Assembly (NCBI GenBank): GCA_951406725.2 | Contig: OX597820.1 | Coordinates: forward strand, 53,072,001-53,136,000 | Length of the DNA stretch: 64,000 nucleotides | Direction: 5' to 3' | DNA from: Octopus vulgaris | Lineage: Eukaryota | Shown here: positions 50,419 through 54,006 of the stretch, in pieces | Layout: each line of letters starts with the position of its first letter | Position numbering within the stretch: position 1 is the stretch's first letter | Made by a program: the position numbers and the translations under genes | The notes under the pieces: model-generated | What the model was told of the DNA's origin: nothing | What the model saw: the letters and a program-made list of their open reading frames with translations, nothing else | Database searches by the model: none

Positions 50419-50564
50419 ATAGAATATATATATAAGTTCAGCAAAAATTTAGATTCAAATGAATATGGTACTTAATTTAGATGCACCAGAATTTTGTATG
50501 GTGTTATCCATAAAAATTCGTGGGGTGATTATAATCAAAATAAGCAACAAGAATGACTCCGGTA

Positions 50565-50654
50565 ATTTTGTACGATCGCTTCGTACTACATCATTTTATT
50601 AAATGTTGTCAGTATTACAACAGATTTAAGATGCTGAGTACTCATCGGCCAATT
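50565..50654 (-). ncRNA. Mutated mirror copy of type I hammerhead ribozyme
   Basis: Minus reads aattgg CCGATGA gtac...gtac GAAG c gatc g TA caaaat, with two core substitutions relative to the + copy. Confidence 0.65.
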
Positions 50655-50890
50655 ATAGAGGTTTTCCATTAATACAAAAATTTTCAAATTAAGTGGCAAT
50701 ATCATAGAGAAGGTAGATATACAGACAAAGATGTGGATTTAAATTTTAAGAACATATGAGGTAGTGAAGTCCTTTCACCACTACCTCATATGTTCTTAAA
50801 ATTTAAATCCACATCTTTGTCTGTATATCTACCTTCTCTATAATGTTGCCACTTAATTTGAAAATTTTTGTATTAATGGAAAACCTCTAT

Positions 50891-50980
50891 ATTTGGCTGA
50901 TGAGTACTCAGCATCTTAAATCTGTTGTAATACTTACAACATTTTATAAAATGATGCAGTATGAAACGATCGTACCAAAT
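50891..50980 (+). ncRNA. Type I hammerhead ribozyme, canonical core, long stem II
   Basis: Stem I atttgg (50891-96)/ccaaat (50975-80); CTGATGA (50897-903); stem II gtac..gcatc..tgttgtaa/ttacaaca..gatgc..gtat; GAAA (50963-66); palindromic stem III ACGATCGT; GUA cleavage triplet ending at 50974. Confidence 0.85.
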
Positions 50981-51006
50981 TACCGGAGTCATTCTTGTTG
51001 CTTATT

Positions 51007-51041
<35 letters not shown>

Positions 51042-51173
51042 AAAATAGTAAAGTGTGAAAAAACGACAGAAGGCTTAAATGTTAAAAAATATATATATTT
51101 GTGTCAAAATGTCTGGAGAATATTGGAAAAATTTTTTTCCTTTCCTTAAAATGACATAATTTAAAAATTTTTA

Positions 51174-51213
51174 AAGAAATTACCGGTTTCGCGTGTAGCT
51201 TTTCAAATTTCTT
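51174..51213 (-). ncRNA. Minimal type I hammerhead (U3-A8 variant), inverted copy
   Basis: Exact reverse complement of 53462-53501. Confidence 0.75.
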
Positions 51214-51349
51214 GTGACGTTATGTTTATATTGCATGGAATTATCGTTGTTTTTATTTCCAGGAGATTTCTAAATAAGGGGAGGTAGTGAGTGATTTTTT
51301 CCGGTGTAGGGGAGATAATCGCTTAAAAAATTTTTTTCCCATTTCCTTG

Positions 51350-51928
51350 TTAATTTCTCTGTGTCAGTATGTTCGGATGGTTGAGTCTGGGTTTGTACTT
51401 TTCAATGAAGAATGTTTCCTTGTTCAGTCTCATTTGTGTTGATGATCCGAAAGCACATTGGTAAAATGGGAAGATTAAAAATTGTGGCAGTAGTTGCTTT
51501 GCGCATTTCTCAATGTGCTCACTAAAAGGTATCATTCTATATTCTGGGAATGCAATCTGTTGTCGATGCAGTGTGCATCTGCGCCTGAGTGATAGTCCCG
51601 TGGAACCCACGTAGTCTTGGTGGCAGCCCGAGCATTTAATAACATAAATTATGTTTTCAGAGGCACAAGTAAAGTTAGATTTGATCTTAAATTTCTGTCC
51701 CTCTTTAAAGAAGAATTCTGATCCTTCCAATAGGTTAGGACATGTTGCACAGTTCGATCTACCACATTTTTTTACTTTTGCATCCGTAATTTTAGAAGAC
51801 AATTTTGCCTTTGTGAGAATCTTTTTAAGTGATTTAGGCTGTTTGTAGCTTTTAATGATTTGGTGTATGTTTAGAATTTCCTTTAATTTTGGGTTTTTAT
51901 GAAGTATTGGTAAATTCTGGGTGATGAT
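51350..51928 (-). pseudogene. Inverted duplicate of the GIY-YIG endonuclease half of the PLE ORF
   Basis: Translation is identical to the C-terminal ~190 aa of ORF 51921..53324. Confidence 0.9.
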
Positions 51929-53324
51929 CAACTTGTATACCAGTATACCTCACAATTATGGACTGGAGGCAATACAATTCTGGTTAGACCAATTTCCGGA
52001 AGAAATACCAAAAAGGATCAGTAAGGAATTCATTACCAAATCAATTGAATTCATCCTACACAATAACCACTTCATGTTTGACAATACATTTTACCGTCAA
52101 AAATCCGGAATTGCTATGGGTACAAGGGCAGCACCAGTCATTGCGAACCTAACAATGGGATACATGGAAATAATCATTTACCAGGAATCTCTATCAATCT
52201 TTGGAAACTCCCTCTCTCAATACATAAAAGAGAATTGGAAACGATTCCTAGACGATTGTTTCATTCTCTGGAATGAAAACATAGATAAACTCCTAAAATT
52301 TAAAAACCTATTGAACAGCATAAACCCAAATATACAGTTCACAATGGAATACAACCAAAAGGAGCTCCCGTTCTTGGATATACTAATTAAAAAAATTAAC
52401 CTTAAAATAGAAACAGACATTTTTTACAAAGCCACAGACGCCAAACAATACCTTCTTTTTAATTCATGCCACCCAAGACACACTAAAACAAACATCCCCT
52501 TCAACCTTGCAAGAAGGATATGCACAATAGTGTCAGAACAAAATACCAGGAACTTTAGACTGCAAGAACTCAAAAACACCCTAATTGACAGACATTACCC
52601 AGCTCAACTCATAGAGGATGGGATCAGACGTGCAACAGAAATCAACATAGAAACTTTAAGAAAAGTTCAACACAACAACACACCTTCCCCGAAAATACTA
52701 CCTTACATATCTACATACAACCCCAGAAACAAAGAAGCCTTCACCATCATCACCCAGAATTTACCAATACTTCATAAAAACCCAAAATTAAAGGAAATTC
52801 TAAACATACACCAAATCATTAAAAGCTACAAACAGCCTAAATCACTTAAAAAGATTCTCACAAAGGCAAAATTGTCTTCTAAAATTACGGATGCAAAAGT
52901 AAAAAAATGTGGTAGATCGAACTGTGCAACATGTCCTAACCTATTGGAAGGATCAGAATTCTTCTTTAAAGAGGGACAGAAATTTAAGATCAAATCTAAC
53001 TTTACTTGTGCCTCTGAAAACATAATTTATGTTATTAAATGCTCGGGCTGCCACCAAGACTACGTGGGTTCCACGGGACTATCACTCAGGCGCAGATGCA
53101 CACTGCATCGACAACAGATTGCATTCCCAGAATATAGAATGATACCTTTTAGTGAGCACATTGAGAAATGCGCAAAGCAACTACTGCCACAATTTTTAAT
53201 CTTCCCATTTTACCAATGTGCTTTCGGATCATCAACACAAATGAGACTGAACAAGGAAACATTCTTCATTGAAAAGTACAAACCCAGACTCAACCATCCG
53301 AACATACTGACACAGAGAAATTAA
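51921..53324 (+). CDS. PLE reverse transcriptase + GIY-YIG endonuclease, N-terminally truncated but uninterrupted
   Basis: RT motifs INLYTSIPH, YRQKSGIAMGTRAAP-IANL-M, WKRFLDDCF, IQFTME, LPFLDI, TDIFYKATD and SCHP-H. Cys-rich linker KCGRSNCATC (Neptune-type). GIY-YIG module NIIYVIKCSGCHQDYVGST...RR...H...E..FI. The predicted start codon comes from the inversion junction and is not native. Confidence 0.92.
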   Translation: MMINLYTSIPHNYGLEAIQFWLDQFPEEIPKRISKEFITKSIEFILHNNHFMFDNTFYRQKSGIAMGTRAAPVIANLTMGYMEIIIYQESLSIFGNSLSQYIKENWKRFLDDCFILWNENIDKLLKFKNLLNSINPNIQFTMEYNQKELPFLDILIKKINLKIETDIFYKATDAKQYLLFNSCHPRHTKTNIPFNLARRICTIVSEQNTRNFRLQELKNTLIDRHYPAQLIEDGIRRATEINIETLRKVQHNNTPSPKILPYISTYNPRNKEAFTIITQNLPILHKNPKLKEILNIHQIIKSYKQPKSLKKILTKAKLSSKITDAKVKKCGRSNCATCPNLLEGSEFFFKEGQKFKIKSNFTCASENIIYVIKCSGCHQDYVGSTGLSLRRRCTLHRQQIAFPEYRMIPFSEHIEKCAKQLLPQFLIFPFYQCAFGSSTQMRLNKETFFIEKYKPRLNHPNILTQRN

Positions 53325-53461
53325 CAAGGAAATGGGAAAAAAAATTTTTTAAGCGATTATCTCCCCTACACCGGAAAAAATCACTCACTACCTCCCCTTA
53401 TTTAGAAATCTCCTGGAAATAAAAACAACGATAATTCCATGCAATATAAACATAACGTCAC

Positions 53462-53501
53462 AAGAAATTTGAAAAGCTACACGCGAAACCGGTAATTTCT
53501 T
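53462..53501 (+). ncRNA. Minimal type I hammerhead ribozyme with U3-A8 compensatory core, in PLE 3' UTR/pLTR
   Basis: Stem I aagaaat (53462-68)/atttctt (53495-501); core TTGAAAA (53469-75); stem II gc-tacac-gc; GAAA (53485-88); palindromic stem III ACCGGT; GUA triplet ending at 53494. Confidence 0.78.
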
Positions 53502-53676
53502 TAAAAATTTTTAAATTATGTCATTTTAAGGAAAGGAAAACAAATTTTTCCAATATTCTCCAGACATTTTGACACAAATATATATATTTTTTAACATTTA
53601 AGCCTTCTGTCGTTTTTTCACACTTTACTATTTTCTTATATATTCACCCACGTGCTTTACCAAACAAACTTTCTTA

Positions 53677-53853
<177 letters not shown>

Positions 53854-54006
53854 AAATATCGTATGTTATTCCCTGTTACATTATAGTACCTGCTGTATTA
53901 GACAATGATCTTTGAATTTACGAATCGAATCCTTTTTTTTAATCCATCTTGTGACAATGTTCTCATTCTGCAGCCCATAATAGGGAACGTCATCATCATA
54001 CTGTTT

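Follow-up and report, generated by a model that had tools for sequence, protein, structure and literature searches.

A minimal hammerhead motif with a U3-A8 core pair in a young, Neptune-like Penelope element of Octopus vulgaris

The exchange of the C3-G8 core pair for U3-A8 in hammerhead motifs of Penelope-like elements (PLEs) has already been reported for the Cercyon elements of Schistosoma mansoni, where it was missed by a CUGANGA descriptor and about 1,300 hits are given (Cervera and de la Pena, 2014; PMC4209133). One row in Fig. S3 of that paper, S. mansoni(4), even shows the core UUGAAAA in a PLE, and the minimal hammerheads of PLEs are described there as cleaving weakly as multimers, together with the proposal of a model based on religated circles. 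Covariation from C3-G8 to U3-A8 is also known from several natural hammerheads which are active in vitro, and stems II as short as 2 bp are called common (Perreault et al., 2011; PMC3088659). The hammerhead of the Poseidon PLE from the anole cleaves only with the protein of the element, and insertion does not depend on it in vitro (Frangieh et al., 2024; PMC11167929), and the need for hammerheads in PLE transposition has been called unclear by Craig et al. (2021; PMC8557442), who also give the layout with a head-to-head, 5'-truncated inverted copy for Penelope-like elements and regard Neptune itself as paraphyletic. The occurrence of U3-A8, and even of UUGAAAA, in PLE hammerheads is thus already published, and the motif treated here is a further example. 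A report of U3-A8 from a cephalopod or a Neptune element was not found in the part of the literature that was covered, which does not imply its absence from print.

The motif is located in a window of 64,000 nucleotides from contig OX597820.1 of Octopus vulgaris, which is the whole stretch of DNA that was analysed; its features are listed in Table 1. A preliminary description of the window had read a 40-nt structure with a 7-bp stem I, a 2-bp stem II, GAAA, ACCGGU, a GUA site and the core UUGAAAA, and this architecture is found exactly as read. Its assignment as a minimal PLE hammerhead with a compensatory U3-A8 pair likewise agrees with the position of the motif, its architecture and the existence of relatives with C3-G8. 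The motif is thus real, but its exact duplicate on the minus strand had been overlooked.

Table 1. Features of the Penelope-like insertion and of its hammerhead motif, in positions of the window
Feature	Position	Strand	Basis
RT, CX4CxxC linker and GIY-YIG coding region, 5'-truncated	51929..53324	+	
3' untranslated part of pseudo-LTR; 32-nt tail on plus arm only; (TA)n end	53325..53670	+	
Inverted arm of the same insertion, more strongly 5'-truncated; (TA)n end	51033..51928	-	
Type I minimal hammerhead, U3-A8 core, predicted cut after 53494	53462..53501	+	sequence reading, descriptor, alignment
Stem I, 5' strand	53462-53468	+	
Core U3 U4 G5 A6 A7 A8 A9, UUGAAAA (U3 53469, A8 53474, A9 53475)	53469..53475	+	reading; alignment with C3-G8 relatives
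Stem II, 2 bp GC/GC, around 5-nt loop	53476-53477 with 53483-53484	+	
GAAA	53485-53488	+	
ACCGGU palindrome, predicted to form stem III between two molecules of a dimer	53488..53493	+	self-duplex energy
A17 of GUA site	53494	+	
Stem I, 3' strand (7-bp stem)	53495-53501	+	
Stem I extension beyond internal loop (53450-53455 with about 53516-53521)	53450..53521	+	predicted only
Identical hammerhead copy in inverted arm, U3 at 51206	51174..51213	-	

The core set of the hammerhead (U4 G5 A6 N7 A9, G12 A13 A14 A15.1, U16.1 and H17) is present and flanked by stems I and II, the latter being closed by G10.1-C11.1, while positions 3 and 8 correspond to the Watson-Crick pair U3-A8 in the window and to C3-G8 in relatives. 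A scan of the window with a descriptor allowing C3-G8 or U3-A8 returned two matches, i.e. the motif and its inverted twin, and none in 200 block-wise dinucleotide shuffles of the window; a stricter first descriptor had overlooked many true motifs. Because the two matches derive from one insertion, they do not count as independent, and since they lie on opposite strands, no dimer in cis is possible within this copy. The folding energy of the motif is ordinary (z -0.37). Its weak points as a ribozyme are the 2-bp stem II and the value of +3.1 kcal/mol for the hammerhead fold of the monomer, compared with -8.3 kcal/mol for the self-duplex of ACCGGU. No hammerhead family of Rfam matched anywhere in 50500-54000 at E<=10, so standard hammerhead models do miss this motif, and the earlier prediction that a search based on CUGANGA would overlook it is borne out.

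The host insertion consists of two head-to-head arms, a minus-strand arm and a plus-strand arm (about 51929-53670), both of which are 5'-truncated, and the hammerhead lies inside the pseudo-LTR, 137 nt 3' of the RT-EN stop codon. The frame of 473 codons at 51903-53324 is open, as had been noted, but it holds only the last ~465 of 811 RT-EN residues, and its first few codons derive from the inverted arm. The window copy lacks the 5' part of RT-EN as well as the upstream ORF; it is a dead, truncated insertion which only inherits the motif. Full copies elsewhere in the genome have a unit of 3,997 nt with an RT-EN frame of 811 codons and an upstream frame of ~450 codons, and tandem copies carry pairs of motifs about 3,996-4,007 nt apart (L061-L063, L067 and L068). 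The youth of the family is evident from 98-100% identity in the best 40 DNA matches to the window element and from 150 of 150 scored protein matches which are 100% identical across the endonuclease part. Pfam recorded no match for the truncated window protein alone; in the 811-residue frame of the full-length copy L067, it detected RVT_1 (E 2.9e-07) and, weakly, GIY-YIG (E 0.068), and 651 protein homologues were collected, many of them with both the RT and the GIY-YIG domains.

Features known from EN+ PLEs are present, namely an RT followed by a C-terminal GIY-YIG domain with CCHH, tandems joined by pseudo-LTRs, an inverted truncated copy and a one-sided tail. The linker reads CGRSNCATC and is followed by 24 residues up to the next Cys, which may be compared with 25-27 residues in the Neptune rows and ~7 in the Nematis rows of Fig. 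S2 in PMC8557442, as counted by eye. Moreover, (TA)n is found at both arm ends and likewise in the other family copies examined. Linker and spacer fit the Neptune rows but not the Nematis rows, and together with the (TA)n ends they point to a Neptune-like host; with the high identity within the family, they uphold the earlier view of a young, Neptune-like element. A protein labelled Argonauta hians falls into the same clade as the window element, and no relative was detected in viral contigs.

Several further features were observed in and around this family. In the full-length copy L067, two frames of about 450 and 811 codons overlap (1753-3240 and 3066-5501), and a slippery heptamer, U UUU UUA, lies in frame within the overlap; it is also in frame in 14 of the 27 related loci covering the RT start, pointing to a putative -1 ribosomal frameshift. 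The first of these frames had no Pfam match; a frameshifted ORF1 in PLEs is mentioned in the legend of Fig. 1 in PMC8557442. A long hairpin with 237-nt arms of 95% complementarity and a 12-nt spacer directly adjoins the left (TA)n end of the insertion (50530-51015) and showed only microRNA-like Rfam matches below threshold. In the contigs of run X3, which are only presumed to represent RNA, T>C differences were recorded at 25 places of 52750-53665, compared with 4 for A>G, and this excess may result from A-to-I editing of an antisense transcript of the inverted repeat.

As to selection on U3 and A8, the preliminary description had argued from the uninterrupted reading frame. This argument does not hold, because the host copy is 5'-truncated and the family is 98-100% identical, so the open frame indicates youth rather than selection. 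The alignment of family copies which had been proposed indeed shows 36 of 38 motifs to be identical in the 30 best loci, but this reflects the age of the family and does not inform on selection. Conservation within the family was thus dropped as a test, the loci being the closest of 1,827 candidates with 98-100% identity. The claim itself is supported by comparison across families, for which 113 outside loci were collected by their protein rather than by the motif; 58 of these reach the end of the ORF, a few near-duplicates among them. A sense-strand hammerhead within 900 nt was found in 36 of the 58 loci with a complete ORF end, compared with one in antisense orientation and, on averaging over 100 shuffles, 0.9. 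When the descriptor placed no constraint on positions 3 and 8, the 36 motifs contained 30 C-G, 3 U-A and 2 U-G pairs and one doubtful G-G, and C-A was not encountered among them. All 36 have palindromes, which the descriptor requires, and three of them (L074, L098 and L126) combine a 2-bp stem II and CCGG, as in the window motif, with a C3-G8 core.

Closer relatives extend this picture. Two families of the same genome with 56-57% protein identity carry the U3-A8 motif in 14 of 14 loci; their stems I and II differ from those of the window motif and yet pair, and position 7 is occupied by A, C, G or T. In a second young family (L236-L239 and L243-L249), no motif was seen within 1.5 kb of the ORF because it is located ~2 kb downstream, behind a microsatellite-rich 3' sequence common to the copies. 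A genome-wide pattern search returned 12,469 matches, compared with 215 for the reversed control. The 12,469 matches are only partly tied to an ORF: a fourth abundant motif family showed a PLE frame at the expected position in one of six loci. They comprise 188 C-G, 316 C-A and 412 U-G pairs at positions 3-8 and, by subtraction, ~11,550 U-A pairs; a tandem repeat of 359 bp accounts for many of the C-G matches listed. Counts based on CUGANGA would therefore overlook about 93% of the matches of this motif type. In an alignment of 17 motifs, U4, G5, A6, A9, G12, A13, A14, A15.1 and U16.1 are invariant, which is partly circular because the motifs were chosen by descriptor, and position 17 was never G among the family motifs seen. 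In a protein tree built by a quick search from 46 rows, from which the near-duplicates L105, L106 and L117 and the doubtful L081 were left out, the U-A label needs three changes, two of them forced by starred branches, and L092 (U-A) is the sister of L142 (C-G).

As judged from these sequence comparisons, i.e. the outside loci, the families of 56-57% identity, the genome-wide counts and the tree, the motif is genuinely homologous to hammerheads, and its positions 3 and 8 are mostly conserved as a pair, and the cross-family comparison supports putative selection on U3-A8. On the opposite side, the genome is AT-rich, so a drift from C-G to U-A is the expected direction, and one array of the 359-bp repeat (L278) contains tandem motifs with C3.A8.

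The 359-bp repeat itself is non-coding and retrozyme-like, forms inverted arrays (L250:1746-3764 and L278-L280) and carries a C3-G8 hammerhead with a 4-bp stem II, while related dispersed motifs have U3-A8 (L251 and L252). At L274, two U3.G8 motifs are found on one strand at 1357 and 5089, 3,732 nt apart, and the sequence between them has no match to the RT-EN protein of the family. Being without stems, the repeated matches to CTGATAA or CTGATGA at L275-L277 and L281 were not accepted as hammerheads. Many matches from the genome collection which are labelled as bacterial assemblies (L141-L185) encode PLE proteins, some with hammerheads, and likely represent animal DNA in those bins.

Within the family of the window element, subfamilies with altered motifs are recognized. 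In the shortened ones, one base is missing at the junction of stem I, as seen in 17 of 26 motifs from 20 loci that had been chosen for differing from the motif type of the window, while the junction is intact in 1,026 of about 1,930 family-type matches (the two patterns used differ slightly). Another subfamily is characterized by U3.G8, with many repeated matches to TTGAAGA and full-length copies that are 97% identical (L270-L273). The amplification of both the U3.G8 and the shortened subfamilies argues against a strict requirement for cleavage. In subfamily trees, the type with an intact junction and GUC is basal, and the intact GUA type of the window is placed among the shortened ones; 36 of 52 motif flanks, with at least 450 aligned nt, were retained for this analysis, and the bootstrap values of 83-86 on the rooted tree are not starred. 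This nesting suggests that the full hammerhead fold may have been lost and then regained in the subfamily of the window. The wider scenario, in which U3-A8 became fixed genome-wide in several Neptune-like families and the window family lost the junction base, spread in this state and rebuilt a GUA hammerhead in its youngest subfamily, is put forward as a tentative one, which is more doubtful than probable. If it were true, the subfamilies would represent a dated natural series running from intact GUC through the shortened and U3.G8 types to restored GUA, which would render the role of PLE hammerheads in vivo directly testable; insertion could then do without cleavage, and yet cleavage would have been useful enough to be selected again.

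The ends of natural copies were mapped in 31 loci and the window, picked for long frames or paired matches. Among the 18 long copies which extend as far as the upstream cut site, 12 continue across it and six begin 46-309 nt past it; none has its 5' end at the cut site, and all mapped 3' ends lie beyond the downstream cut site. The 5' ends of copies were accordingly rejected as a footprint of cutting. A drop in the depth of run X3 at 53494 was likewise rejected as a sign of cleavage, because this same position varies between sister subfamilies.

The reading that we favour with reasonable, though not high, confidence is a weak cut after 53494, which would occur probably only with the assistance of a dimer or a protein and would probably not be needed for each insertion. 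Two motifs would pair via ACCGGU to form stem III, full-length tandems would supply them on one strand about 3,997 nt apart, and U3-A8 would keep the tertiary Watson-Crick pair. Cleavage would then affect a minority of read-through transcripts, resulting in their release, turnover or circle formation, and RNA in which the hammerhead site has stayed intact or been religated would serve as the template for insertions.

A rather unlikely alternative that still deserves weight is that a descendant of a hammerhead is kept as a structural signal, e.g. for protein binding or dimerisation, with little or no cleavage. The spread of variants expected to harm catalysis (U3.G8 and shortened stem I), the lack of copy ends at the cut in all 18 cases and the hammerhead mutants without effect on insertion of the anole PLE in vitro (PMC11167929) would be explained in this way, but the catalytic set stays fixed across families, although this is partly circular for motifs picked by descriptor, and neither the exclusion of G from position 17 in the family motifs seen nor the covariation of the 3-8 pair is in favour of it. 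It appears improbable that the motif is an efficient ribozyme which defines where the template begins or produces unit circles for rolling-circle reverse transcription, since no 5' end of the 18 copies coincides with the cut. The 12 loci with copies longer than one unit and intact junctions do fit a religated circle, but read-through of tandem copies gives the same structures, and subfamilies with damaged motifs exceed one unit as well (L270, with two motifs 3,977 nt apart); the full fold, apparently restored in the youngest subfamily, would also speak for efficient cleavage. A decaying relic or chance match, with U3 and A8 as two independent AT-ward mutations, is very improbable and already largely refuted by the cross-family and genome-wide counts, because, despite the AT-rich genome, the fold z-score near zero and the missing Rfam match, the shuffled windows gave no match, the genome-wide matches far outnumber those of the control, the same pair recurs in families of 56-57% identity with rebuilt stems, and C-A is absent from the 36 outside motifs.

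The results on copy ends and on damaged subfamilies agree with the dispensability reported for the hammerhead of the anole PLE (PMC11167929); the Poseidon element shares the location of the hammerhead in the pseudo-LTR and a tail at one end (30-40 nt, compared with 32 nt here), but it belongs to the Poseidon clade, has a C3-G8 core and was tested at the bench. With the Neptune clade, as presented in PMC8557442, the element has in common the GIY-YIG domain with CCHH, the CX2-5CxxC linker and a long spacer, as well as (TA)n targets, the inverted 5'-truncated copy and the tail at one end. The PLE hammerheads of Lunse, Weinberg and Breaker (2017), as summarised in PMC6765202, correspond to the window motif in their short palindromic stem III and are described as cleaving in the form of dimers. 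The variants of Perreault et al. share U3-A8 and a short stem II, but are not described as PLE motifs in the part of that paper considered here (PMC3088659). The closest counterparts are the Cercyon hammerheads of S. mansoni, which are likewise minimal type I motifs in a PLE pseudo-LTR with U3-A8 and, in one PLE row, UUGAAAA; differences are the 7-bp stem I found here, a stem II of 2 bp without a bulge rather than 4-6 bp with a bulge as in the Cercyon rows, a palindrome of 6 nt (ACCGGU) instead of 4 nt, and the Neptune-like host (PMC4209133). What is added is a host genome where U3-A8 predominates, and repeated swaps between C-G and U-A are provided on one tree of related elements. The series of subfamilies could help to decide if the transposition of PLEs depends on their hammerheads.
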